The notes under the pieces: generated by a model | The model's input: only the letters and a program-made list of their open reading frames with translations | Told to the model about the DNA's origin: nothing | The model's database searches: none | In this document: positions 783-63,720 of the stretch, in pieces | How positions within the stretch are numbered: the first letter of the stretch is position 1 | How the letters are laid out: each line of letters opens with the position of its first letter | Made by a program: the position numbers and the translations under genes | NCBI GenBank assembly: GCA_964537935.1 | Contig: CAZICT010000001.1 | Span: 70,870 to 134,869 of the forward strand | Direction: 5' to 3' | Origin: an uncultured Candidatus Saccharibacteria bacterium | GTDB lineage: Bacteria; Patescibacteriota; Saccharimonadia; Saccharimonadales; CAZICT01 | Length of the DNA stretch: 64,000 bases

Positions 783-3700
783 TTATCTTTCTACTTCAAC
801 CGAAGCGGTTTTGCCACTGCTGTCGGTCACGGTGATGGTGTACTCTGTATTATTGTCTGACAGCTCGACTTCACATTCTTTGTTATTGGTGTTCGCACAA
901 CCGTTAGCATCACCGCCTGTAACTGTAACGTTATATGGCGCGGTTCCACCTGTCCACCTAAGCTTAACCGTTGATCCTACATTATCGCCGTTTTGATGGC
1001 TGGTTATGGTTATCGACTGACCGCCGCCTCCACCGGAGGACGTTGATCCTTTAACATTGCCGCTGTCAGTCGCCGAGTAGAGTACGCTGTCAACGACCTC
1101 TACCGTGACTTGTTTTGTGCCATTAAAGTTTGCAGTGTAGTTTACACTCACCAGTCCCGGTCCACTAATATTCCGTGATTGTATTTCTTGACCATCCACC
1201 CGGAAGGTAACTGTTCCAGGGTACTGGCTACTGCTGAGCGGATGCGTACCTTGAGTTATGTCTGCTTCGAGCCGGTATTTGTTTCCTCCTGTATTTACCA
1301 TGCTTAATCGCACCGCTGGTTTAATGTCTTCGCACCTGTGTATGTCATCCAGTGCCGTGGTATTGGCGCTTCTGTTACCATCTACAAACTTGTCTGCCGA
1401 AAATTGATTAGCGGTACCTTCGTTTACGGTTTTACGTGCCCGCTCAGGCGTACAGTCAGTCGCAAGCTTGTTTGAAACAATGTCAATCGTTTGTTGCTGT
1501 CTTGAACTATCGACCGGCTCATACCAGGAAGGGAATAAATCGGTTTGAGGACTTGGCTCAATTGACCCCACTCCAACATGATTGCGTACGACGTATGCCG
1601 GTAGGGTTTTCACTCCTTCAGGCCGAGGTCTTTCTATAGGTTCCAAATCGGTGTGAACAGCACGCATCCAACCTTCCCAAATCGGTAGGGTCATGTTTTC
1701 CATGAAACCGCTCATTTCCACTCGCCGGTTATGATAACCTACCCAAACTCCGGCTGCGTACTTGGTTGAAAAGCCCATCATCCAACCGTCCTTAGCATCA
1801 TTGGTCGTACCGGTCTTTATGCTGAAATCCCAATTTCCTTTACCGCCGTTAAAATCGTGTGGTTTGCGACTAAAATAGCTGGCACGCGGATCAGCGAGCA
1901 TGTCTGCTGTTATGTAAGCAGAGTCAGGGCGGACGGCTTGTTCACCCTCGGTTTGTTCCCATTCCTGAATAACATCACCATCACCATCTTCTATTTTCAG
2001 TATGTATGTCATAGGCAGAACTTTACCGTTTCGGGAAATTGATGCGAAACCGTGAACATGCTCATCAAGTTGCAGGTAAGCACCATCTCCGATTGCTGAT
2101 GAAGCATAACATTGTGTAGGAACAGTAAGTTCTTCATCTTCAAAACACTTGTAACCGTCTTCCTCGTCACCCATCAGCTTGTTGGCTGTTTCAATTGTCT
2201 TATCAACACCCGCAGTAAGCATGGCTTTAACTGCCGGCACGTTGCGTGAACCGCCTAGAGCATAACGCAGCGTCAATGGACCGGGATAACGAAAATCATA
2301 GTTCCATAAACAGTTACCGCCGCTTTGCGGACGATTTTTATTGGTACACGGATAACCGTCAATAGGTGATTGAATATCATACAGTACAGACCCGGCTCCA
2401 GCGTTATTTGTGTTTTCCATCATTGCAATGTAATCGTACGGCTTGAAACTCGATCCCGGAGGCAAACGGTAGCGAGCGTAATTGTTCTGTCCGTATTCCG
2501 AATTAGTAAAGTCAGGACCGCCCACAAGCGCCACAATCTGGCCTGTTTCAACATCTTCAGCTACAAACGCCGCTACATCACCTCCCTGGCGACGGACCTG
2601 ATGAATACCGTCAGCGACTTGCTTTTCAGCCTCACGCTGCAGGTTCAGATCAAGGGTGGTAATAACTTTCCAGCCACCGCGCTCTACGTTTTGAGCGCCG
2701 AATTCATGCTCTAACGCTTCTTTCGCGGTTAGCACAAACCATGGCGCAGTGATACCTTCGTATTTCGGCTGTACTTCTTTAACCTTGGCAAGCGTATCAG
2801 TCTGTTTAGCCTCGTCGCGCTCCTCGGCTGAAATCATCCCTTGCTGTTCCATAAGATCAAGTATGTAGTGTTGGCGCCCAACCAGTGCTTCTGGATTATA
2901 GATTGGCCCGTAAGGTGAATAATACGAAGGAGACTGTGGAATTGCGGCCAGAAAAGCGGCTTCATCCAAGGTTAGTTCTTTGGCTGATTTCTGAAAATAA
3001 TCCCTAGTAGCGGCTTCGACGCCGTACTGAACGTTTCCATAAGGAGCCGTATTGAGGTAACCGGTTAAAATTTCCTGTTTGGAGTATGACCTTTCAAGCT
3101 CAATCGATAGAATGAGTTCTTTGATTTTTCTTTGGTATGTTTGCTCTTTACCAACGTCTGATTGAGTTAAGCGGACCAACTGCTGCGTAATCGTGGAACC
3201 ACCTTGCCGGGTGCCATTGTCACCGAAGGTGTTGTTGTAAGCTGCGCGCATAATACCCTTAAGGTCAAAGCCGCTATGCTCAAAAAATTCCTTGTCTTCA
3301 ATAGCGATGGTTGCGTCTTTAATAAACTGGCTAATGTCATCATCCTGTACCGGAATACGCTTTACAGCGTCATAATCTTCCCAAAGCAGAGTCTCGCCTG
3401 TCCTATCGTAATAACGAATACTTCCGCCGATATTATTGCCGGAAATATCCCTTAGGTTAGGAAGATCTTTTCTAAAGTATGCAAAAACGCCTATAACCAG
3501 CAAAAAGCCAGCTATAATCCCGATGCCAGTGACTTTGAGCGCCATGATTGCGCCTTCACGGCTAAACCAGTATTTATAAAGTCGCTTCGGGTGCAGTCGA
3601 TAAAAAAATCGCTTTATGCGTGACTTAGGCATTCCCGCCAATCGCTCGGCACGTTTTTTGGCCAGCGCTTCCCGGCGTGATTTGAACTTTTCACTCAATG

Positions 3701-3809
3701 AGCGATTAATCTTGATCGTCTTTCCGCTTTTAGTGACAAAAGTGTTTTTGCTCTTGCGACCCAGCTGCTTTGAACCACGCGTCGCAATACGCTTACTCTT
3801 CTTATTCAT
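783..3809 (-). CDS. Class A penicillin-binding protein (GT51 transglycosylase + transpeptidase) with ~250-aa C-terminal extension
   Basis: 1008-aa ORF; basic N-tail + TM helix; EDKEFFEHSGFD and GGSTITQQL (GT51); SSFKP (SxxK), SRN, KTGT (transpeptidase). Confidence 0.9.
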   Translation of the reverse strand: MNKKSKRIATRGSKQLGRKSKNTFVTKSGKTIKINRSLSEKFKSRREALAKKRAERLAGMPKSRIKRFFYRLHPKRLYKYWFSREGAIMALKVTGIGIIAGFLLVIGVFAYFRKDLPNLRDISGNNIGGSIRYYDRTGETLLWEDYDAVKRIPVQDDDISQFIKDATIAIEDKEFFEHSGFDLKGIMRAAYNNTFGDNGTRQGGSTITQQLVRLTQSDVGKEQTYQRKIKELILSIELERSYSKQEILTGYLNTAPYGNVQYGVEAATRDYFQKSAKELTLDEAAFLAAIPQSPSYYSPYGPIYNPEALVGRQHYILDLMEQQGMISAEERDEAKQTDTLAKVKEVQPKYEGITAPWFVLTAKEALEHEFGAQNVERGGWKVITTLDLNLQREAEKQVADGIHQVRRQGGDVAAFVAEDVETGQIVALVGGPDFTNSEYGQNNYARYRLPPGSSFKPYDYIAMMENTNNAGAGSVLYDIQSPIDGYPCTNKNRPQSGGNCLWNYDFRYPGPLTLRYALGGSRNVPAVKAMLTAGVDKTIETANKLMGDEEDGYKCFEDEELTVPTQCYASSAIGDGAYLQLDEHVHGFASISRNGKVLPMTYILKIEDGDGDVIQEWEQTEGEQAVRPDSAYITADMLADPRASYFSRKPHDFNGGKGNWDFSIKTGTTNDAKDGWMMGFSTKYAAGVWVGYHNRRVEMSGFMENMTLPIWEGWMRAVHTDLEPIERPRPEGVKTLPAYVVRNHVGVGSIEPSPQTDLFPSWYEPVDSSRQQQTIDIVSNKLATDCTPERARKTVNEGTANQFSADKFVDGNRSANTTALDDIHRCEDIKPAVRLSMVNTGGNKYRLEADITQGTHPLSSSQYPGTVTFRVDGQEIQSRNISGPGLVSVNYTANFNGTKQVTVEVVDSVLYSATDSGNVKGSTSSGGGGGQSITITSHQNGDNVGSTVKLRWTGGTAPYNVTVTGGDANGCANTNNKECEVELSDNNTEYTITVTDSSGKTASVEVER

Positions 3810-6000: not shown

Positions 6001-8037
6001 ATGCGAGGCGACAGTCCGGTTACCGAAATAAGAGGGGTTGGTGAAGCCGTAGCCAAGAAATTTAAAATTCTTGGCATTGAAACAGTTGATGATCTTATAA
6101 ATTACTTTCCGCGTCGCTACGATGATTATTCTGAAGTACAGAATATTAAATCTATCCAGCCTGGGCCGGTTACGATAGAGGCTACCATCAAGCAGGTCGT
6201 CGGTCGTTATGTTCGGCGTGGCTTGCATGTAACCGAGGCTGTGGCTAGCGATGAAACGGGAAGCGTCAAGCTGGTTTGGTTCAACCAGCCGTATCGAGCA
6301 TCAGCTATAAAACGAGATGTTAAATACTATATCTCAGGTGATTTTACTTTCAACAAACAGCGTTTAAGCATCAATAATCCGTCGATGGAGCTGGTGTCTG
6401 ATTTTCCGGTTAGTACCGCGAGAATTGTACCTGTCTACAAAGAAACCAAGGGCCTGAAGTCCGCGGTTATTCGAAAATCCGTTAGCCAATGCCGGCATCA
6501 CATAGACGAATTACCGGAAGTTTTACCTAAGTGGCTGATCAAACAAGAAAAGTTACTCTCATATTCTGATGCTGTTATGGCAATGCATTTCCCCGGTTCT
6601 AAAAAAGAACTGGAGCTTGCAAAACAGCGACTTGGCTTTCAGGAGGTATTTGAAATAACTCTAGCTGCTTTGCTTAATAAGCAGGAATTACTACAAGAAG
6701 TATCGGTTAAGATACCGTTTATCGAAAGTGTAGCTCAAAAATTCGTTGGTCACCTGCCGTTCAAGCTTACCGATGCCCAGCGGAAAGCCATATGGCGCAT
6801 CTATAAGGATATGGAAAAGTCACAACCGATGAACCGCTTAGTTGAGGGTGATGTCGGCTCAGGCAAAACCGTCGTAGCTGCCATGGCTGGAGTTATGGCA
6901 CTGGAACAAGGTTTTCAAGTAGCTTTGATGGCACCGACCGAGCTCCTGGCCAGGCAGCACGCCGAAACAATCCACAATTTGCTTGAGCCGCTTGGCTATG
7001 GCAAATCCGTCGGTTTATTAGTCGGCGGAATGACTACGTCACAAAAAGAAAGGGCCCGCAAGGCGGTTGCTTCGGGTAATATTTCATTCATCATCGGTAC
7101 GCATGCGTTAATTCAAGAAAAAGTTGACATGCATAAGCTGGGGCTGGTGGTAATTGACGAACAACACCGGTTTGGAGTTGAGCAGCGTAAGTCGTTGCAG
7201 GCAAAAGCTGGACATATGCCGCATGTATTGTCGATGACCGCCACGCCGATACCTCGTACTCTAGCGCTTACACTATTCGGGGAACTTGATATATCTGTTA
7301 TTGACACAAAACCTGAAGGCAGAAAACCGATAATCACCAAACTATGCTCTCCTAATTCCCGAAAACAGCTTTATGAGGCCATTGATCTTGATCTGGCGGC
7401 TGGTCGACAGATGTTTGTCGTCTGTCCTTTGATTACTGAATCTTCAGTTATGGACGTCAGATCGGCTGAGAAAGTTTTTGAAGACTTAAGTAAAGGCGCT
7501 TTTAAGCACAGGCGAGTCGGACTTCTCCATGGCAAAATGAAGCCTCAAGATAAGGATAGCGTTATGCAGGAATTTGTCGAAGGTAAGTTGGATATATTGG
7601 TTTCAACCACCGTCATTGAAGTCGGTGTTAATGTGCCGGAGGCTACGGTTATGTTGATAGAGAATGCGGAACGCTTCGGTCTAGCACAAATTCATCAGTT
7701 ACGCGGACGAGTAGGTCGCAGCCAGCATCAGGGCTATTGTTACCTAATGCTTGGCAACAGTCAGCAGCCAAGCCGTCGCTTAAGAGCACTGGAGCAATCG
7801 AGTAATGGCTTTGAATTAGCCGAGCTAGATCTTGAGATTAGGGGACCTGGAGCTATTTACGGTTCAATGCAGCATGGCCAGCTTGACCTTAGAGTAGCGA
7901 CTTTAACCGATACGCTGTTGATTGAGCGTGCTAGAACAGCTGCTCAGACTTTTATAGATAAAGATGAAGATCTGCTACAATATAGCCATATATACGCTAA
8001 TGTCTCGAAGTATCGAGCTGTCACAAATTTAAACTAG
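6001..8037 (+). CDS. recG: ATP-dependent DNA helicase RecG
   Basis: 678 aa; helicase motifs GDVGSGKT, DEQHRFGV, TATPIPRT, QLRGRVGR; N-terminal wedge/OB region. Confidence 0.93.
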   Translation: MRGDSPVTEIRGVGEAVAKKFKILGIETVDDLINYFPRRYDDYSEVQNIKSIQPGPVTIEATIKQVVGRYVRRGLHVTEAVASDETGSVKLVWFNQPYRASAIKRDVKYYISGDFTFNKQRLSINNPSMELVSDFPVSTARIVPVYKETKGLKSAVIRKSVSQCRHHIDELPEVLPKWLIKQEKLLSYSDAVMAMHFPGSKKELELAKQRLGFQEVFEITLAALLNKQELLQEVSVKIPFIESVAQKFVGHLPFKLTDAQRKAIWRIYKDMEKSQPMNRLVEGDVGSGKTVVAAMAGVMALEQGFQVALMAPTELLARQHAETIHNLLEPLGYGKSVGLLVGGMTTSQKERARKAVASGNISFIIGTHALIQEKVDMHKLGLVVIDEQHRFGVEQRKSLQAKAGHMPHVLSMTATPIPRTLALTLFGELDISVIDTKPEGRKPIITKLCSPNSRKQLYEAIDLDLAAGRQMFVVCPLITESSVMDVRSAEKVFEDLSKGAFKHRRVGLLHGKMKPQDKDSVMQEFVEGKLDILVSTTVIEVGVNVPEATVMLIENAERFGLAQIHQLRGRVGRSQHQGYCYLMLGNSQQPSRRLRALEQSSNGFELAELDLEIRGPGAIYGSMQHGQLDLRVATLTDTLLIERARTAAQTFIDKDEDLLQYSHIYANVSKYRAVTNLN

Positions 8038-33952: not shown

Positions 33953-34788
33953 TGGCTATTAAGACATACAAGCCAACGACTCCCGGAAGGCGAGGCATGA
34001 CTGGCCAAGACTTGAGCACTATCACCACTAAGAAGCCGCTTAAGTCGTTGACGGTAATAAAGAACAAGAATTCCGGACGTAACAATCAAGGCAGGATTAC
34101 TACCCGTCACCGTGGCGGTGGTACCCGCAAATTCTATCGGTTGGTAGATTTCAAGCTGTCACCTGGTACTGAGGCCGTAGTTGAGCATATAGAATACGAC
34201 CCAAACCGCAGCGCACATATCGCGCGTATTAAAGATTCAAATAACACTTATCATTACGTACTGGCAGCAGCTGGAATGAAAGTCGGAACCAAAATTACTA
34301 GCGGTGAAGATGCGCCTATCGAGAACGGCAACCGATTGCCACTAAAAAATATTCCTGTTGGAACCATCGTACACGCTGTTGAACTTAGCCCTGGTAAGGG
34401 CGCACAAATGGTGCGTTCAGCAGGAGCGGGCGCACAGCTGATGGCTAAAGAAGACAACTATGCTCAACTTAAGCTGCCAAGCGGCGAAGTACGACGTGTG
34501 CTGGTTACTTGCACGGCAAGTGTTGGGGTAGTAGGAAATGAGCAACACCAAAACATCAAGGTAGGAAAAGCCGGACGTAATCGCAATAAAGGTATCCGTC
34601 CTACCGTCCGTGGTGTTGTTATGAACGCGGCAGATCACCCTCATGGTGGTGGAGATGGTGGACGACACGGTCCAGGTAAAGACCCGCGAACACCTTGGGG
34701 GCAGCGCACGCTTGGTTACAAGACCCGCCGCCGCAAGAATACTAATAAATTTATTGTCCGCAGTCGTCATGCGGCGAAGAGGAAATAA
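33952..34788 (+). CDS. rplB: 50S ribosomal protein L2 (uL2)
   Basis: 278 aa; MNAADHPHGGGDG motif. Confidence 0.97.
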   Translation: MAIKTYKPTTPGRRGMTGQDLSTITTKKPLKSLTVIKNKNSGRNNQGRITTRHRGGGTRKFYRLVDFKLSPGTEAVVEHIEYDPNRSAHIARIKDSNNTYHYVLAAAGMKVGTKITSGEDAPIENGNRLPLKNIPVGTIVHAVELSPGKGAQMVRSAGAGAQLMAKEDNYAQLKLPSGEVRRVLVTCTASVGVVGNEQHQNIKVGKAGRNRNKGIRPTVRGVVMNAADHPHGGGDGGRHGPGKDPRTPWGQRTLGYKTRRRKNTNKFIVRSRHAAKRK

Positions 34789-34791
34789 GCG

Positions 34792-35067
34792 ATGAGTAGA
34801 TCACTGAAAAAAGGTCCATTCATTGACCCAAAGCTCGCTAAAAAAGTTGACGCACTGGGCAAGGAAGACCGAACCATCATTAAGACCTGGGCGCGCAGTA
34901 GCACAATCAGCCCTGAGTTTGTGGGCCGCACCATTGCTGTTCACAACGGAAAAGTTCACGTTCCGGTGTTTATTACCGAAAACATGGTAGGACACAAACT
35001 AGGAGAGTTTGCGCCGACCCGTAAATTCCGCCGACACGGTGGTAAGCTCGCGAAAGGTGGTAGATAA
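34792..35067 (+). CDS. rpsS: 30S ribosomal protein S19 (uS19)
   Basis: [12 protein letters not shown]..., HNGK motif. Confidence 0.97.
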
Positions 35068-35069
35068 TC

Positions 35070-35468
35070 ATGTCAGTTACCGCAACCGCTAAGAGCGTTC
35101 GTATGAGCCCGCGAAAAGTTGGCGTGGTTGCTGCGCTTGTTCGTGGCCGCAGCGTGGCTGATGCTATTACGATTTTAGAACATACACCTCGCCGAGCCGC
35201 CCTAACCGTAAAGAAAGTCATTGAGAGTGCTAGAGCTAATGCTGAAAATAACCACAACTACAAAGCCGACACACTGCAATTGACCACCATAACGGTTACT
35301 CCGGGTCCCCGTCTTAAGCGTTATCGCCCGGCCGCTCATGGTCGTGCACTTCCGTACCAAAGGCGCACATCTCATATTCATGTAGTAGTTGACGGAGAAG
35401 TCCGAGCTCCTAAGAAGCCGGCAGCTCCCGCAAAGAAAGCTGACGCAAAGAAGGAGGCTAAGAAATGA
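35070..35468 (+). CDS. rplV: 50S ribosomal protein L22 (uL22) with Lys/Ala/Pro-rich C-tail
   Basis: uL22-like core; TGA stop at 35466-68. Confidence 0.95.
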   Translation: MSVTATAKSVRMSPRKVGVVAALVRGRSVADAITILEHTPRRAALTVKKVIESARANAENNHNYKADTLQLTTITVTPGPRLKRYRPAAHGRALPYQRRTSHIHVVVDGEVRAPKKPAAPAKKADAKKEAKK

Positions 35469-35569
35469 ATTTAAGAAAAGACAGCAGCCAGAGTTTGAAT
35501 TCATTTCAAGCCCTGCGCGATGTGAAAAACCGTAGGTTTGTATTTAAGACCGAACGGAGTGAGGTGTAG
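35465..35569 (+). CDS. Candidate 34-aa micro-ORF ([34 protein letters not shown]), paralog of 38368-38484
   Basis: ATG overlaps rplV stop (ATGA); stop 2 nt before rpsC ATG; frame conserved with paralog. Confidence 0.35.
   Translation: MNLRKDSSQSLNSFQALRDVKNRRFVFKTERSEV
35468..35545 (+). repeat. Copy 1 of ~77-nt intergenic repeat (partner 38383-38458)
   Basis: 66/75 identical in the core by manual alignment; hairpins ttgaa-ttcat-ttcaa and aaacc-gta-ggttt. Confidence 0.85.
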
Positions 35570-35571
35570 TT

Positions 35572-36204
35572 ATGGGTCAGAAAGTAAATCCGATTAGCAT
35601 GCGACTCCAGGTTAATAAGAACTGGCGCAGCAAGTGGTTCGCCAATAAGCGCGAGTACGCTAAGTATTTGACGCAAGACCTTGAGGTTCGCCGTTTGATT
35701 AAAAATAAGCTCGGTAAACGTGCAGCTATCAATACTATTGATATCGAACGTTCACCTAACCTTGTTTCAGTAACTATCACGACCGCTAAAGCCGGTGTAG
35801 TCATCGGACGCGGTGGTTCAGGCGCTCAAGAATTAAAAGCGGCCATAGAAAAAATCTATGGTGTACCAACCAGGGTTAACATTGAAGAGATCAAGAAACC
35901 TGAGCTTTATGCCAAGCTGGTTGCTGAAAATATCGCTCATCAACTTGAGCGGCGTATCGCATTTCGTCGAGCAGTAAAATCAGCCGCAGCCGCAACCATG
36001 CGTGCCGGAGCTAAGGGAATCCGTATTGAGGTTGCCGGCCGGCTTGGAGGCGCAGAAATGAGCCGCCGTGAAAAAACCGTCGAAGGTTCCGTGCCGCTGC
36101 ACACACTCCGTGCCGATATCGATTATCATGCCGCACGAGCCAATTACCCAGGCGCTGGCATCATCGGTGTCAAGGTGTGGATCTATAAGGGGGAGGTGAA
36201 GTAA
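35572..36204 (+). CDS. rpsC: 30S ribosomal protein S3 (uS3)
   Basis: [12 protein letters not shown]..., KH domain. Confidence 0.97.
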
Positions 36205-36205
36205 C

Positions 36206-36619
36206 ATGTTGATGCCTAACCGAACTAAGCACCGCAAGGTGTTCAAAGGAAGAGTACGCGGACCGGCCACCAAGGGTAACTATATCGCCTTCGGGCAATA
36301 CGCCCTCCAAAGCCAAGGCCATGAACGTATTACTTCCCGTCAAATTGAGTCAGCCCGTCAGGCAATGACCCGCTACATTAAGCGAGGTGGTAAAATTTGG
36401 ATCCGCATTTTCCCTCATACACCTGTAACCCGCAAGGCACTTGGTACGAAGATGGGGAGCGGTAAAGGAAATCCGGAATTTTTTGCAGCCAAAGTAAGAC
36501 CCGGAACTATCCTGTTCGAGATGCAAGGAGTGAGCGAAGAAGTAGCCCGTGAAGCAATGCGACTGGCTGCCCACAAACTGCCTGTGAAGACTAAGTTTTT
36601 AGTGAAGGAGGAGGCGTAA
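36206..36619 (+). CDS. rplP: 50S ribosomal protein L16 (uL16)
   Basis: [16 protein letters not shown]... Confidence 0.97.
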
Positions 36620-36620
36620 T

Positions 36621-36821
36621 ATGAAAATCGCTGATATCCGTAAATTTTCTACAGCAGAACTGGCAACAGAAAGTTCTAAGCTGCGCGAGGAAATTGCCGA
36701 ACTGAAACGAAGAGTCCACATGGGCGAAACCCAGAATGTGCGTGCAATTCGCAATAAACGTAAAGATTTAGCCCGAATGCTGACCGTGCTAGGTGAGCAG
36801 CTGGCGAAGGAGAACATGTAA
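36621..36821 (+). CDS. rpmC: 50S ribosomal protein L29 (uL29)
   Basis: 66 aa, helical uL29-like; position. Confidence 0.92.
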   Translation: MKIADIRKFSTAELATESSKLREEIAELKRRVHMGETQNVRAIRNKRKDLARMLTVLGEQLAKENM

Positions 36822-37096
36822 TGGCAAAAACGCTATACGGTGTTGTGTCCTCAGACAAGGGCGACAAGACAATTGTCGTTACTGTTTCTACCCGAAAAAC
36901 ACACCGGCTCTATAACAAGCAATACACTGAGGACCATAAATTTATGGCGCATGATGAAAAGAACGAAGCGCAGATTGGCGATAAGGTCGCTATCAGTGAA
37001 ACTAAACCACTCAGTGCTCGTAAGCGCTTTAAGCTCGACCGCATTATTGAGAAAGCGGCTATCCGTCACGTTGAGGACGGGGAGGTAGAAGTGTAA
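36821..37096 (+). CDS. rpsQ: 30S ribosomal protein S17 (uS17)
   Basis: TAATG overlap; [14 protein letters not shown] typical uS17. Confidence 0.95.
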
Positions 37097-37464
37097 TGAT
37101 ACAGCAAGAATCCCGATTAACCGTCTGTGACAACAGTGGTGCAAAAGAAATTTTGTGCATCCGAGTTCTTGGCGGCACACGTAAACGCTATGCGCGTGTC
37201 GGTGATCTGATCACTGCTACGGTAAAAGAGGCGAGTCCGACTGGTGCCGTTAAGAAAAAGTCGGTCGTTAAAGCGGTAGTTGTGCGAAGTCAACGCGAAA
37301 TAAAGCGCAAAGACGGATCGACTATCAAATTTGATGATAACGCAGCCGTAATTGTCGGCGACGACAAAAATCCACGCGCAACCCGTATTTTTGGCCCTGT
37401 TCCCCGTGAATTGCGCGATTTAGGTTACACAAAAATTGTGAGCTTAGCTCCGGAGGTACTCTAA
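37096..37464 (+). CDS. rplN: 50S ribosomal protein L14 (uL14)
   Basis: [18 protein letters not shown]... Confidence 0.97.
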
Positions 37465-37793
37465 TGAATACCGTATATAAGATACGATTGCAAAAGGGTG
37501 ACACCGTACAGGTCCTATCCGGTAAGTACAAAGGCAAGACCGGTAAGGTTACTGCCGTACACCCGAAAGAGAATAAAGTAACGGTTGAAGGTGTAAACAT
37601 CGTTAAAAAGCATGTGAAGCCTAATCGCGAATATCCTCAAGGAACTATTCTTGAGATCACCAAACCCATCTGGGTAAGCAAGGTTGGCATTGTCGAACCG
37701 ACCACCAAGAAGCCGTCACGCATCGCTTATAAAATCGGTAAGGATGGCAAAAAGGTTCGCGTATATGCATCAACCGGGAAGGAAGTTAAGTAA
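37464..37793 (+). CDS. rplX: 50S ribosomal protein L24 (uL24)
   Basis: KGDTVQVLSGKYKGKTGKV KOW motif. Confidence 0.96.
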   Translation: MNTVYKIRLQKGDTVQVLSGKYKGKTGKVTAVHPKENKVTVEGVNIVKKHVKPNREYPQGTILEITKPIWVSKVGIVEPTTKKPSRIAYKIGKDGKKVRVYASTGKEVK

Positions 37794-38368
37794 TGGCTAC
37801 CGCTACTAAGATCACACCAACAGCCCGGTTAAAACATGAGTTTAATGAGAAATATGCTCGTGAACTACAAAAAGAATTGGGGCTTAAAAATATCCAGCAG
37901 GTTCCGCGGCTGGAAAAGATTGTTTTGAACGTAGGACTCGGACGCGCAAAGGACGATAAAAAGATTATCGAAGTTGCAACCAACACTATTACAAAGATTA
38001 CCGGCCAGAAACCAGTCGACACATTCGCCAAAAATTCCATAGCCGGATTTAAGCTACGTGAAGGCAATAAGATCGGTATCAAAGTAACACTGCGAGATGA
38101 GCGGATGTATGAATTTTTAGACCGTTTGATTAATATTGTCCTGCCGCGACTTCGTGACTTTCACGGTGTTAGCAATAAAGCATTCGATAAGTCAGGCAAC
38201 TACAGCATCGGTATTCCCGATCAGTCAGTTTTTCCGGAATTAACTTTCGATGAAACGACAACCAGCCACGGATTGCAAGCGGTACTGGTAGTAGAATGTC
38301 AAGAACAAGCGCATGCCAAGGCATTGTTACAAAAGTTTGGTATGCCATTTGAAAAGGAGGCAAAGTAA
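37793..38368 (+). CDS. rplE: 50S ribosomal protein L5 (uL5)
   Basis: 191 aa uL5-like; TAATG overlaps on both sides. Confidence 0.96.
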   Translation: MATATKITPTARLKHEFNEKYARELQKELGLKNIQQVPRLEKIVLNVGLGRAKDDKKIIEVATNTITKITGQKPVDTFAKNSIAGFKLREGNKIGIKVTLRDERMYEFLDRLINIVLPRLRDFHGVSNKAFDKSGNYSIGIPDQSVFPELTFDETTTSHGLQAVLVVECQEQAHAKALLQKFGMPFEKEAK

Positions 38369-38484
38369 TGTTTGCCGTAAGTAATTTAAGGGAAAAGAGC
38401 AGCCAGAGCTTGAATTCATTTCAAACCCTGCGCGATGAGAAAAACCGCAGGTTTGTTTCATGCTCAGACAAGGAGGCAAAGTAA
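38368..38484 (+). CDS. Candidate 38-aa micro-ORF ([38 protein letters not shown]), paralog of 35465-35569
   Basis: ATG overlaps rplE stop (TAATG) and its stop overlaps the rpsN ATG (TAATG). Confidence 0.35.
38383..38458 (+). repeat. Copy 2 of ~77-nt intergenic repeat (partner 35468-35545)
   Basis: Manual alignment; flanked by 17-nt direct repeat aaggaggcaaagtaatg (38354-70, 38470-86). Confidence 0.85.
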
Positions 38485-38753
38485 TGGCTAAAAAGTCTAT
38501 CGTAGCACGCGACCGTAAGCGCCAGAAAATGATCCAGCGCTACGCCGCAAAGCGAGCAGAACTGAAGGCCCTCGGTGACCGAGAAGGCCTCCATTTACTG
38601 CCGCGAAATTCATCACCAACCCGATGGAAGAATCGTTGTAACGAAACCGGACGTCCGCATGGCTATATGCGTCAATTCGGCTTAAACCGTATTTCTTTCC
38701 GTGAACATGCAAGCAAGGGCGAAATCCCTGGTGTAACAAAGTCAAGCTGGTAA
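38484..38753 (+). CDS. rpsN: 30S ribosomal protein S14 (uS14), 89-aa Cys-poor (non-zinc) form
   Basis: [16 protein letters not shown]...; ORF opens at 38460 but conserved start is 38484 after aaggagg. Confidence 0.94.
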
Positions 38754-38763
38754 AGGAGCAGAT

Positions 38764-39165
38764 ATGTCTACAGTAACAACCGACCCAATAGCTGATATGC
38801 TCTCTCGAATTCGGAACGCAATTGCTGTTCGGAAGTCCGAGGTGTCTTTACCGCACTCAAAAGTCAAGGAAGCGGTAGCCCGACTGCTTAAAGAAAACCA
38901 CATGATCGCTGATGTTACGGTTGAAGAAGCCGTGGTTGGTAAAACGCTTAGGATTGTGGTTAATACCGAAAACACCAACGCCAATATCACTGAGATTAAG
39001 CGCCTAAGTACGCCAGGACGTCGTATGTACAGCAGTGCTGATAAAATTCCAGTAGTTAAGCGTGGTCGCGGAATTGTCATCGTCAGCACCAGCAAAGGCA
39101 TGTTGACCGGACAGGAAGCTAAACGCCTTGGTATTGGCGGCGAATTAATCTGCCAGGTGTATTAA
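38764..39165 (+). CDS. rpsH: 30S ribosomal protein S8 (uS8)
   Basis: DPIADMLSRIRNA typical uS8. Confidence 0.97.
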   Translation: MSTVTTDPIADMLSRIRNAIAVRKSEVSLPHSKVKEAVARLLKENHMIADVTVEEAVVGKTLRIVVNTENTNANITEIKRLSTPGRRMYSSADKIPVVKRGRGIVIVSTSKGMLTGQEAKRLGIGGELICQVY

Positions 39166-39183
39166 TAAAGTAAAGGATTAGAA

Positions 39184-39723
39184 ATGAGTCGTATAGGAAA
39201 ACTACCGATCGAAATTCCATCCGGTGTGACAATCACTGTCGACCCAGACGTAATTACAGTAGCGGGCTCCAAGGGCACGCTCACGCAATTTACAATGCCT
39301 GGGGTAGCCGTAAAGCAAGAAGACAATAAAATTGTCGTCACCCGGGATAATGACGAACCGAAGAATCGTGCCAAACACGGCTTAATGCGTTCGCTTATAA
39401 ACAATATGGTTTTAGGCGTTACTCAAGGTTTCAGCAAAAAGCTTGAAATCAATGGTGTTGGTTACCGTGTATCTCTTGCCGGTAACGCTTTAAAATTTAA
39501 TATCGGCTACTCGCATGAAGTGACGTTTACTTTGCCGCAAGGTATCACGGCTACGGTTGAACAAAATGTGATAACCGTCAACGGTATCAATAAGCAACAA
39601 GTAGGTCAGGTAGCTGCAGAAATCCGTGCGCTCCGCAAGCCTGAGCCATACAAGGGCAAGGGCATTAAGTATGCAGACGAGCGAATTATTCGTAAGTCTG
39701 GTAAATCAGGAAAGGATAAGTAA
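39184..39723 (+). CDS. rplF: 50S ribosomal protein L6 (uL6)
   Basis: MSRIGKLPIEIPSGV... Confidence 0.97.
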   Translation: MSRIGKLPIEIPSGVTITVDPDVITVAGSKGTLTQFTMPGVAVKQEDNKIVVTRDNDEPKNRAKHGLMRSLINNMVLGVTQGFSKKLEINGVGYRVSLAGNALKFNIGYSHEVTFTLPQGITATVEQNVITVNGINKQQVGQVAAEIRALRKPEPYKGKGIKYADERIIRKSGKSGKDK

Positions 39724-51118: not shown

Positions 51119-51119
51119 T

Positions 51120-51148
51120 AATTAGCTTATAGCTATCAGCTAATAGCT
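51120..51148 (+). repeat. AGCT heptad array (AGCTnnn x4); 22/24 match to 63680-63703
   Basis: AGCT at 51124, 51131, 51138, 51145 (exact 7-nt period). Confidence 0.8.
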
Positions 51149-51161
51149 CATAGATAAATGT

Positions 51162-51332: not shown

Positions 51333-51363
51333 CGGCACTTTTGGAGATTCATCGACAAAAGCG

Positions 51364-51381
51364 ATCCCTCTCCCTGCACCA
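51364..51381 (+). repeat. 18-nt exact duplicate of the tRNA-Tyr 3' end (atccctctccctgcacca = 51230-51247)
   Basis: Direct repeat 116 nt downstream of the genuine 3' end. Confidence 0.9.
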
Positions 51382-51419
51382 AACTAAGGGTCGGGCCATG
51401 AGCCCGGCTTTTAGTTTGG
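51379..51419 (+). terminator. Long hairpin after the duplicated tRNA-Tyr 3' end
   Basis: ccaaactaa-gggtcgggc-catg-agcccggctt-ttagtttgg. Confidence 0.45.
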
Positions 51420-51515: not shown

Positions 51516-51529
51516 CTGGTAGTTGTTAC

Positions 51530-51557
51530 ACCATCTTAGCTCAGGGGTAGAGCACCT
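51530..51557 (+). pseudogene. 5' tRNA fragment (acceptor strand ACCATCT + D-arm + start of anticodon stem)
   Basis: 51537-51557 is 21/21 identical to 51581-51601 of tRNA-Thr(GGT); diverges after cacct. Confidence 0.6.
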
Positions 51558-51573
51558 AGTACATTTTCATTAT

Positions 51574-51648
51574 GCCGTTGTAGCTCAGGGGTAGAGCACC
51601 TCCATGGTAAGGAGGGGGTCACGAGTTCAAATCTCGTCAACGGCTCCA
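51574..51648 (+). tRNA. tRNA-Thr (anticodon GGT), CCA encoded
   Basis: Acceptor GCCGTTG/CAACGGC, anticodon stem-loop cctcc-atggtaa-ggagg, T-loop TTCAAAT. Confidence 0.92.
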
Positions 51649-63620: not shown

Positions 63621-63669
63621 ACAACAGAGGTAACTTGTAGTACAATTTATCAGTTACGCACTCCTGGCT

Positions 63670-63703
63670 AGCTGTAAGCAATTAGCTAATAGCTGTCAGC
63701 TAA
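63670..63703 (+). repeat. AGCT heptad array upstream of rplK; 63680-63703 matches 51120-51143 (22/24)
   Basis: AGCT at 63670, 63684, 63691, 63698. Confidence 0.8.
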
Positions 63704-63720
63704 ATTTACGGAGTAATTTC

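Follow-up and report, generated by a model that had tools for sequence, protein, structure and literature searches.

Bacterial 23S rRNA genes may carry intervening sequences (IVSs), which in the classical cases are insertions at helix 25 and helix 45 that are removed by RNase III. A survey of Saccharibacteria published in 2024 found that 64 of 66 rRNA insertions were no longer than 250 bp and lacked introns and endonuclease genes, the short ones being at known RNase III IVS sites (PMC11270868). Here we describe a Saccharibacteria element that is found both at such loci and between protein genes. The DNA analysed, called the window below, is a stretch of 64,000 nucleotides (nt) of contig CAZICT010000001.1 (positions 70,870 to 134,869), which carries, to judge from its gene order and from the titles of its 80 best-matching rplE relatives, the S10-spc ribosomal-protein operon of a member of the Saccharibacteria (TM7, Saccharimonadales). 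Positions 38371-38469 of the window, between rplE and rpsN, very probably represent one copy of a multi-copy, non-autonomous structured repeat family that was inserted into an ancestral overlapping rplE-TAATG-rpsN junction.

Small structured repeats are also known from intergenic regions. The Correia elements of Neisseria (CREE/NEMIS) and the REP/BIME and ERIC sequences of enterobacteria are small, structured and multi-copy, are co-transcribed, occur in either orientation and may work as terminators or as sites of processing. Those of Neisseria have terminal inverted repeats along with a TA duplication, and REPs are moved by RAYT transposases and lack long duplications. The present family is likewise small, structured and multi-copy, and its antisense strand is terminator-like; we know of no Correia, REP or ERIC element that forms a translated coupled cassette between overlapping genes or that duplicates 12-43 nt of its target. 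The Rickettsia palindromic elements, of about 100-150 nt, reportedly survive in translated sequence by means of an open frame and are said to occur in RNA genes as well. Copies of the present family also lie within translated sequence with the frame open, and at RNA loci, but the likeness is one of description only: the Rickettsia elements are reported to sit in frame within protein genes and to become part of the protein, whereas a copy of our family forms a separate coupled open reading frame (ORF) between genes, and in another lineage. Eukaryotic short interspersed elements (SINEs) combine a structured RNA core with variable target-site duplications. The family follows the same pattern, namely, a structured RNA core, variable duplications in the 10-40-nt range, variable 5' and 3' linkers, and concentration in highly transcribed stable-RNA loci. 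The resemblance is in pattern only, since no poly(A)-like tail, internal promoter or partner reverse transcriptase was identified for the family. To our knowledge, a SINE-type mechanism has not been described in bacteria.

The resemblance to IVSs resides in members of the family other than the window copies. L176 (handles of this form denote the genomes and contigs compared) has two copies inside 23S rRNA, one of which (about 105 nt) replaces the helix-45 loop, and a third copy 12 nt before 5S rRNA. In L086, a whole rRNA operon, a tandem pair stops 8 nt short of the 23S 5' end, and two more copies are inside 23S. From our own reading of the flanks, we take copies in L086 and L111 to be in the helix-25 region of 23S. 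Like the short rRNA insertions of the survey, family copies there are about 100 nt long, sporadic, and without ORF, intron or homing endonuclease, and the family probably accounts for part of the insertions reported in PMC11270868. Unlike IVSs, the same core also occurs in tRNA and 5S leaders, at ribosomal-protein junctions and beside ordinary genes, with flank duplications and in translatable form. Neither PMC11270868 nor Rfam 15 describes a family that crosses these contexts or a conserved motif of this kind.

The duplicated rplE-rpsN junction and its empty counterparts

The 17-mer AAGGAGGCAAAGTAATG is present exactly twice in the window, on the plus strand, at 38354-38370 and 38470-38486, which leaves an interior of 99 nt and gives a period of 116 nt. 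The pair lengthens to 20 nt at 19/20 identity (GAAAAGGAGGCAAAGTAATG versus GACAAGGAGGCAAAGTAATG), the extended upstream copy being 38351-38370. When up to three mismatches are allowed, five matches are observed, against a mean of 0.25 and a maximum of 2 in 100 dinucleotide shuffles, none of which reached five. The exact pair at this spacing is not a chance occurrence. Nor is it an assembly artefact, because the window is matched at 100% identity by three contigs from independent sequencing runs, of which two (corresponding to 34484-39215 and 37224-39215) span both 17-mers and the third, which begins at 38451, has the downstream copy only. The only contigs that encode an identical S14 are 100% identical to the window, and among them no empty rplE|rpsN allele was found. 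A sequence-only reading of the window had called a 17-nt direct duplication around a micro-ORF with a 99-nt interior, and the exact pair, the shuffles and the independent contigs bear this out. It had also remarked that rplE and the micro-ORF both end in KEAK-stop, which is correct: rplE ends in ...FEKEAK-TAA and the 38-codon ORF in ...SDKEAK-TAA, and each stop overlaps the next ATG as TAATG. The features are as follows.

35465-35569, plus strand: copy 1 of the pass-through micro-ORF, 34 codons, between rplV and rpsC; called as a gene on an identical contig.
35473-35549, plus strand: degenerate core motif of copy 1, scoring 56.8 bits with the covariance model R1, three pairs of hairpin P2 being broken.
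37793-38368, plus strand: rplE (ribosomal protein L5), from the ORF list; its last four codons and stop are inside the upstream 17-mer.
38354-38370, plus strand: upstream junction copy, an exact 17-mer with an AAGGAG resembling a Shine-Dalgarno (SD) sequence, rplE codons A-K, TAA and an overlapping ATG.
38368-38484, plus strand: copy 2 of the pass-through micro-ORF, 38 codons, with TAATG coupling at both ends.
38371-38387, plus strand: variable 5' linker of the insert, in which TTTGCC pairs, around the GTAATG stop/start, with the GGCAAA of the upstream repeat.
38388-38467, plus strand: conserved core motif of copy 2, scoring 80.9 bits with R1 (E 5e-17).
38404-38430, minus strand: terminator-like antisense of hairpin P1, followed by GCTGCTCTTT.
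38470-38486, plus strand: downstream junction copy, an exact 17-mer in which the pass-through ORF ends (last codons and TAA) and which has the SD and the ATG of rpsN.
38484-38753, plus strand: rpsN (ribosomal protein S14), from the ORF list; Pfam Ribosomal_S14 is matched on identical contigs.

The rplE product is 64-80% identical to L5 of 80 Saccharibacteria genomes, and Pfam Ribosomal_L5 is matched on an identical contig. The ATG of the upstream junction copy is the start of the pass-through ORF, and the 5' linker holds a third AAGTAAT.

That the interior was inserted follows from comparison with relatives. Eighteen gene junctions were annotated in 80 species-level Saccharibacteria genomes, a junction being called tight when the genes overlap or are no more than 3 nt apart. 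The rplE|rpsN junction is tight in 72 of the 80 loci, and such an empty site has one junction copy (for example, gaaaaggagaagaagTAATGgct). It is expanded in only eight, of which three, the window, L051 and L055, contain the element. In a concatenated ribosomal-protein tree these three genomes belong to distant clades and their nearest relatives are empty. Moreover, both repeat copies in each filled genome match the junction of its own empty relatives (L055 versus L059; L051 versus L013 and L031). An empty and a filled site can be compared at closer range at rpmC|rpsQ, where L006 is empty and L004 is filled; the ribosomal proteins of this pair are 97% identical, and DNA identity is 98% for the adjacent rpmC gene and 90-99% for most of the remaining aligned segments of the locus. 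The earlier proposal of a 116-bp insertion into an ancestral tight rplE-TAATG-rpsN junction is thus upheld by the empty sites and the distant filled clades, and regeneration of the junction on both sides is supported by the match of both copies to empty relatives. Empty single-junction sites are the rule, rather than relatives that are all filled and have diverged flanks, and at this junction the duplication is not missing where the element is present.

The window has two R1 matches only, the intact copy 2 and copy 1, which is decaying. The rplV|rpsC junction that holds copy 1 is tight in 65 of 74 relatives. The 74-nt repeat that contains the copy 1 core (35468-35541) is 89% identical to the corresponding stretch of copy 2. 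In the core, GGG is replaced by AAA and GAGC by GACAGC, the 5' strand is decayed, and P2 has a broken base that is missing beyond GGTTTGT. The coupled ORF is intact: its start overlaps the rplV stop as ATGA, and 2 nt separate its end from the rpsC ATG. The junction duplication is absent from copy 1, as had been noted before, though copy 1 has an imperfect 11-nt direct repeat of its own (TGAATTTAAGA at 35466-35476 and TGTATTTAAGA at 35539-35549).

A two-hairpin family, its settings and its flanks

From its 5' end, the core has a single strand of nearly invariant sequence, AAGGGAAAAGAGCA, then hairpin P1, a linking G and hairpin P2. P1 (38402-38433 in copy 2) varies at its top between copies and has a bulged C and a conserved A.C mismatch, and P2 (38435-38461 in copy 2) has the form AUGAGAAAAACC-loop-GGUUUGUCUCAU with a conserved A.G mismatch. 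The structure is established by covariation. Compensatory changes are found in 19 of the 22 modelled pairs, and pairing is seen in 92.6% of cells, compared with 79% in shuffles and 40-50% when the partners are slid. Copies outside the pattern-selected set show further compensatory changes at the base of P2 (UUGAGA/UCUCAA, ACGAGA/UCUCGU and AUAGGA/UCCUAU). The pairs comprise 2299 Watson-Crick, 30 G.U and 21 A.C. In P1 the wobble is symmetric (G.U about equal to A.C) and indicates no strand of function; a signature of sense RNA is seen solely in the 3' strand of P2, which tolerates G.U (9/238) but not A.C (2/833; a 16-fold difference, p = 4e-5). About 45 nucleotides, unpaired ones included, are nearly invariant across genomes whose ribosomal proteins are only about 70% identical. 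Each hairpin has 11-13 bp, and RNase III substrates are typically longer. In the antisense P1 the conserved A.C is turned into G.U, which improves folding by about 2.5 kcal/mol, and the antisense strand of the element has a GC-rich hairpin followed by GCUGCUCUUUUCC, resembling an intrinsic terminator. A further upstream hairpin, P0, with a likeness to the tRNA D-arm was considered and not adopted, the GCUC-GAGC pairing concerned being weakly enriched (12 six-bp cases versus 5.5 expected).

Known RNA families do not include this core. Rfam 15 at gathering thresholds found only the five tRNAs in the window. At E<=10 it found nothing in 35300-38700, and in the best-scoring copy (L087, 380-560) it found the adjacent tRNA and two chance matches outside or across the motif; the known self-cleaving ribozyme classes of Rfam had no match in either region. 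Literature searches returned no description of the motif. A scan of viral contigs gave no exact match to the motif pattern, and a viral origin was set aside. Judged from the sequence comparisons, the two-hairpin core is a previously uncatalogued, widespread family of Saccharibacteria elements.

The core was found with nhmmer and R1 in 7 of the 80 genomes, at rpsC|rplP, rpmC|rpsQ, rplE|rpsN and rplO|secY, and is absent from the other 73 ribosomal-protein loci. When metagenome contigs were scanned with the motif pattern, at least 120 stretches matched, and in 100 of these R1 then made 121 matches; homologous copies in metagenomes exceed 130 (about 135 overall). About half of all copies are at translation-apparatus loci. 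Besides the rRNA copies, 33 unique copies are 1-15 nt upstream of a same-strand tRNA gene, with many specificities represented, and 16 copies are in the S10-spc operon at nine junctions (rplC|rplD, rplD|rplW, rplW|rplB, rplV|rpsC, rpsC|rplP, rpmC|rpsQ, rpsQ|rplN, rplE|rpsN and rplO|secY). Others precede genes for L10, L11, S18, SSB, ArgRS, a class-I aminoacyl-tRNA synthetase, DnaK, DnaB, RNase III and ATP synthase gamma. In L100 and L200 the element forms a coupled pass-through ORF directly upstream of rnc, the gene for RNase III, which is the enzyme that excises classical 23S IVSs; this position may be a coincidence. All of these copies have the sense orientation. Seventeen further copies are antisense, between genes of the other strand. 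The terminator likeness of antisense P1 may be the reason for the lack of antisense copies inside rRNA, tRNA and ribosomal-protein operons. With respect to replication, bulk GC skew was positive for 55 copies and negative for 43, and third-position skew corrected for gene strand gave 7 versus 13, which is not significant; the loci are short. In L133 (1091-1145) and L149 (1432-1487) a mini-variant occurs in which P1 is replaced by GCGAAGC and which is preceded by a separate CTCGAATTTACTTCGAG hairpin. These mini-variants are presumably just upstream of the 23S rRNA 5' end, a placement from our own reading.

The sequence-only reading had recognized a unit that moves, but took the micro-ORF for that unit, whereas what is conserved and mobile is a structured nucleic-acid motif of about 80 nt. 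Nor is this motif particular to ribosomal-protein junctions. Saccharibacteria and other genomes of the candidate phyla radiation are tiny and tightly packed, yet their most highly expressed operons are peppered with small inserts. One two-hairpin family unites four oddities of these genomes: short 23S insertions, structured tRNA leaders, hundreds of hypothetical ORFs and expanded ribosomal-protein junctions.

Duplicated flanks recur in the family. The two flanks of every copy, each of up to 90 nt, were compared with one another, mismatched flank pairs serving as the control. Of 123 copies, 22 scored above the 99th percentile of the control; three of these are tRNA or other coincidences and 19 are genuine. 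About one copy in six therefore has a site-specific direct repeat of 12-43 nt, each made of local sequence, and L113 adds a 42-nt case. The lengths are 12, 15-19, 17, 17, 19, 21, 23, 27, 31, 38, 42, 42 and 43 nt. At gene junctions the SD-stop-start module is duplicated, over 15-27 nt. Examples are L055 at rplE|rpsN (AAGGAGAATAAATAATG twice), L038 at rpmC|rpsQ (TTAAGGAGACCGTGTAATG twice), L025 at rpsC|rplP (GGAGGTAGCATAATG twice) and L138 upstream of rplD, presumably at rplC|rplD (CATTAAGGAGGCCAAGTAATG twice); the repeat of L051 at rplE|rpsN matches at 16/17. The junction repeats all begin at, or up to 11 nt upstream of, an AAGGAG-type SD, and seven of eight end exactly at ATG, the other 3 nt past it. 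L138 and the window have a common interior start, TTTGCCG, at different junctions, each with its own local repeat, which matches the prediction of insertion with target duplication. Elsewhere the duplicated target is the last 6-14 codons of the upstream gene, the first 13-14 codons of an opposite-strand gene (L131, L121, L096 and L181, and a further gene in L183) or a whole intrinsic terminator (L095 and L168). The opposite-strand gene of L131, L121, L096 and L181 encodes MEQAIFAAGCFWG at its start, and on this ground we read it as msrA-like. The repeat and the core are separated by a linker whose length ranges from 4 to 34 nt, and in the aligned copies with flank repeats no common sequence precedes the inserts. 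For tRNA leaders, duplication of the tRNA 5' end was considered and rejected, the tRNA's own sequence scoring no better than that of others (mean 5.3 versus 5.0).

Some repeats near tRNA genes of the window are of other kinds. The spacer between tRNA-Thr and tRNA-Tyr (51119-51161) is filled with short repeats of the TAGCT(N)ATAGCT type, which recur 12.5 kb away (63669-63719); in other genomes the R1 motif stands in their place. The 5' half of tRNA-Thr(GGT) is duplicated over 32 nt (84%; 51526-51557 and 51570-51601), 12 nt upstream of the real gene, and this may be the footprint of an earlier rearrangement or of an excised insert. The 3' end of tRNA-Tyr (ATCCCTCTCCCTGCACCA) is repeated at 51360-51383, about 120 nt downstream of the gene, and resembles an att-site remnant of an integrated element.

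Route of insertion and role of the core

At rplE|rpsN, the insertion duplicated the junction from the SD to ATG, over 17-20 nt. In the left junction copy rplE still meets its stop, and the ATG opens the 38-codon frame across the insert; the right copy ends this frame and, with the original SD, restarts rpsN. Ribosomes would be handed on from rplE to the pass-through ORF and then to rpsN. As to the route, we tentatively favor copy-and-paste by template switching or illegitimate recombination through the AAGGAG and TAATG microhomologies, which every junction has. Copying would leave the target after TAATG, cross a donor copy, return at AAGGAG and re-copy the junction, and the donor might be incoming DNA. 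Saccharibacteria are reported to be naturally competent (PMC10633639/PMC10187176), which would give access to such DNA. Template switching would explain why the boundaries run from SD to ATG and why a GAY triplet recurs ahead of the downstream copy; it would also explain the foreign-looking 3' junction of copy 1 and its lack of a local repeat. A somewhat less likely alternative is RNA-mediated or staggered-break insertion with variable duplications, followed by selection for those events that restored the junction; the 31-43-nt repeats at terminators and gene ends would fit this route better.

Several observations weigh against insertion of a mobile repeat by such routes. No enzyme or donor copy has been identified, and the insert has no terminal inverted repeats: the inverted repeats within 38340-38500 are the internal P1 and P2 and a 6-bp GGCAAA/TTTGCC pair that involves the target, none of which joins the insert ends. 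No flank repeat is detectable in 84% of copies, and the tRNA-leader copies have none. In L004 the upstream and downstream repeats differ at 5 of 17 positions despite flanks nearly identical to those of L006, and a simple clean target duplication therefore fails to explain this case. The L004/L006 pair points to recombination with foreign DNA, at least there. An origin of the L004 downstream repeat from its rplE end was ruled out, as comparison with L006 shows it to be the original local junction. The window, L051 and L055 share their 17-nt boundaries and the GAY triplet before the downstream copy, which could reflect shared ancestry with many losses. Finally, all of the about 70 copies at tRNA genes, rRNA operons and ribosomal-protein operons are sense-oriented, which, together with the tolerance of G.U in P2, hints at a role at the RNA level, something that a purely selfish element could do without.

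This last point leads to the strongest competing explanation, that the core is a host-functional RNA recruited repeatedly to transcripts of the translation apparatus, whether to signal processing, to cleave itself as a ribozyme or to bind a regulator; the copies at ribosomal-protein junctions would then regulate or process operon mRNA rather than be neutral passengers. The concentration of sense copies at translation-apparatus loci would be expected of such an RNA, as would copies just ahead of mature tRNA, 23S and 5S 5' ends, the near invariance of even unpaired nucleotides, the strand-specific wobble of P2 and the recurrence of the motif in the Thr-Tyr tRNA spacer of several contigs. However, at any given site the motif is absent from most genomes, including the five tRNA leaders of the window and the great majority of ribosomal-protein loci, and P1 subfamilies differ at the same orthologous position, which indicates turnover rather than vertical retention. 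Antisense copies exist, pairing is almost purely Watson-Crick, and in copy 1 the motif decays while the ORF is kept. The sense bias itself may reflect the terminator-like antisense strand, which would be harmful inside operons. On balance a host function of this sort seems unlikely, though it deserves to be kept in mind. Most likely, the core is an RNA module that folds by itself and is tolerated in spacers, from whose RNA it is probably excised, and that in the rplE|rpsN mRNA is translated through. As a structured repeat that persists in spacers, it has a real, if low, chance of being a new processing or regulatory RNA. A combination is conceivable, and we regard it as rather improbable, in which the core, lying just ahead of mature tRNA, 23S and 5S 5' ends and within 23S expansion sites, is a new RNA class of the translation apparatus whose excised copies are re-inserted by an RNA-mediated or template-switch route with 12-43-nt duplications. 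If true, this would be a bacterial counterpart of SINE-type spread that includes translatable cassettes between coupled genes. More generally, a processing or catalytic function of the motif, or an RNA-mediated spread, would make it a new kind of bacterial element.

It may be argued instead that the rplE|rpsN insert is ancient and orthologous in the window, L051 and L055, and that it was lost many times by recombination between the repeats, with the 17-mers kept identical by gene conversion or selection. The common boundaries and GAY codon would then be inherited, and recombination across 17-nt direct repeats would give back a perfect empty site. But the ribosomal-protein tree would demand at least 10 independent losses, both junction copies match each genome's own empty relatives, and the P1 subfamily differs between L051 and L055. 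Furthermore, L122 has an independent insertion at rplE|rpsN with other boundaries (23 nt, ending at ATGGCC). Common descent of the three inserts is accordingly improbable.

Mobilization in trans by a DDE transposase with a fixed staggered cut, as for a classical miniature inverted-repeat transposable element, is very improbable. Such an origin would suit a small, multi-copy, non-coding element that has direct-repeat flanks and occurs in either orientation next to ordinary genes. The variable repeat length, the variable linkers and the lack of terminal inverted repeats argue against a fixed-stagger transposase, in keeping with the earlier suspicion that the duplication departs from that of classical transposons, and no transposase-like ORF was noticed beside any of the about 135 copies, an observation confined to their neighborhoods. 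An origin as a palindrome-associated element derived from IS200/IS605 was rejected, since P1 and P2 differ in sequence, the flank duplications are long and no common sequence precedes the inserts.

The pass-through frame and other expanded junctions

Of the 28 sense copies at coding junctions, 23 have the REKSS...RDEKNR frame open and in register, compared with 13 of 46 copies at tRNA and rRNA genes (Fisher 9e-6), 72% of the tRNA-leader and rRNA copies being out of frame or interrupted by stops. The copy of L060, in an untranslated spacer, has no ORF. In L004 and L025 compensated indels close the frame on the downstream TAATG and alter the peptide. In 10 of the 17 antisense copies it is on the operon strand that an open frame runs across the motif. 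In the msrA-type cases the open frame begins at the duplicated gene start, and in L121, as we read it, the frame ends beside the real start codon, for which the linker now provides a new SD. The enrichment of the frame, together with hairpin covariation that rewrites the peptide, argues for selection on openness and coupling of the frame and not on the protein. From this sequence evidence we infer that the 38-codon peptide is a by-product, the frame and its TAATG ends being selected and the amino-acid sequence not.

It is scarcely credible that the ORFs of 34-38 codons are true genes encoding a small basic protein (such as a ribosomal protein particular to the lineage and duplicated within the operon), in spite of their tight coupling to ribosomal-protein genes, the enrichment of the open frame and the 550 similar ORFs called in the protein database, of which the best 120 are all of 33-49 aa and share REKSSQS..RDEKNR: conservation is at the nucleotide level, synonymous positions included, rather than beyond it in the amino acids, compensatory hairpin changes rewrite the middle of the peptide (QSLNSFQTL to QSARIYFAAL to PNMNSFHVR), the L004 and L025 indels restore frame and not sequence, the motif recurs in tRNA leaders, 23S rRNA and the ORF-less spacer of L060, and many antisense copies are crossed by a different frame on the other strand. 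Annotators should thus be cautious with such micro-ORFs, which would be by-products. Duplication of an SD-stop-start module, with the insert read as a pass-through ORF, would be a natural way to add foreign sequence between overlapping genes while keeping them coupled.

Ribosomal-protein junctions of Saccharibacteria also hold inserts of other kinds. In a minority of genomes (L004, L005, L006, L013, L014, L015, L018, L020, L051 and L077) many S10-spc junctions are expanded by 80-165 nt, for example at 1409-1514, 6550-6655 and 9290-9395 in L005 and at 1180-1294 and 3851-3965 in L020. The inserts in these junctions represent several other long-hairpin families, with tandem 7-8-nt repeats that are inverted, such as GACAAGA x4 ... 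TCATGAC x4. They start at the ATGA or TAATG overlap, usually end in ...GCGAC(T/C)GAAAGGAG-N6-8-ATG and have no junction duplication, and they differ between genomes with 97% identical ribosomal proteins. In L047, runs of N at 3584-3737 and 7251-7358 fall exactly at rplV|rpsC and rpsH|rplF, and the state of these junctions is unreadable. The rplO|secY junction has 1-2.5 kb extra in some genomes (a gap of 1.9-2.5 kb in L019, L042 and L040), compared with 164 nt in the window. The rplB|rpsS gap, which is 3 nt in the window, is 250-440 nt in about 20 loci (L049 2775-3021, L080 2701-2952, L004 and L020 among them), with an apparent extra small ORF.

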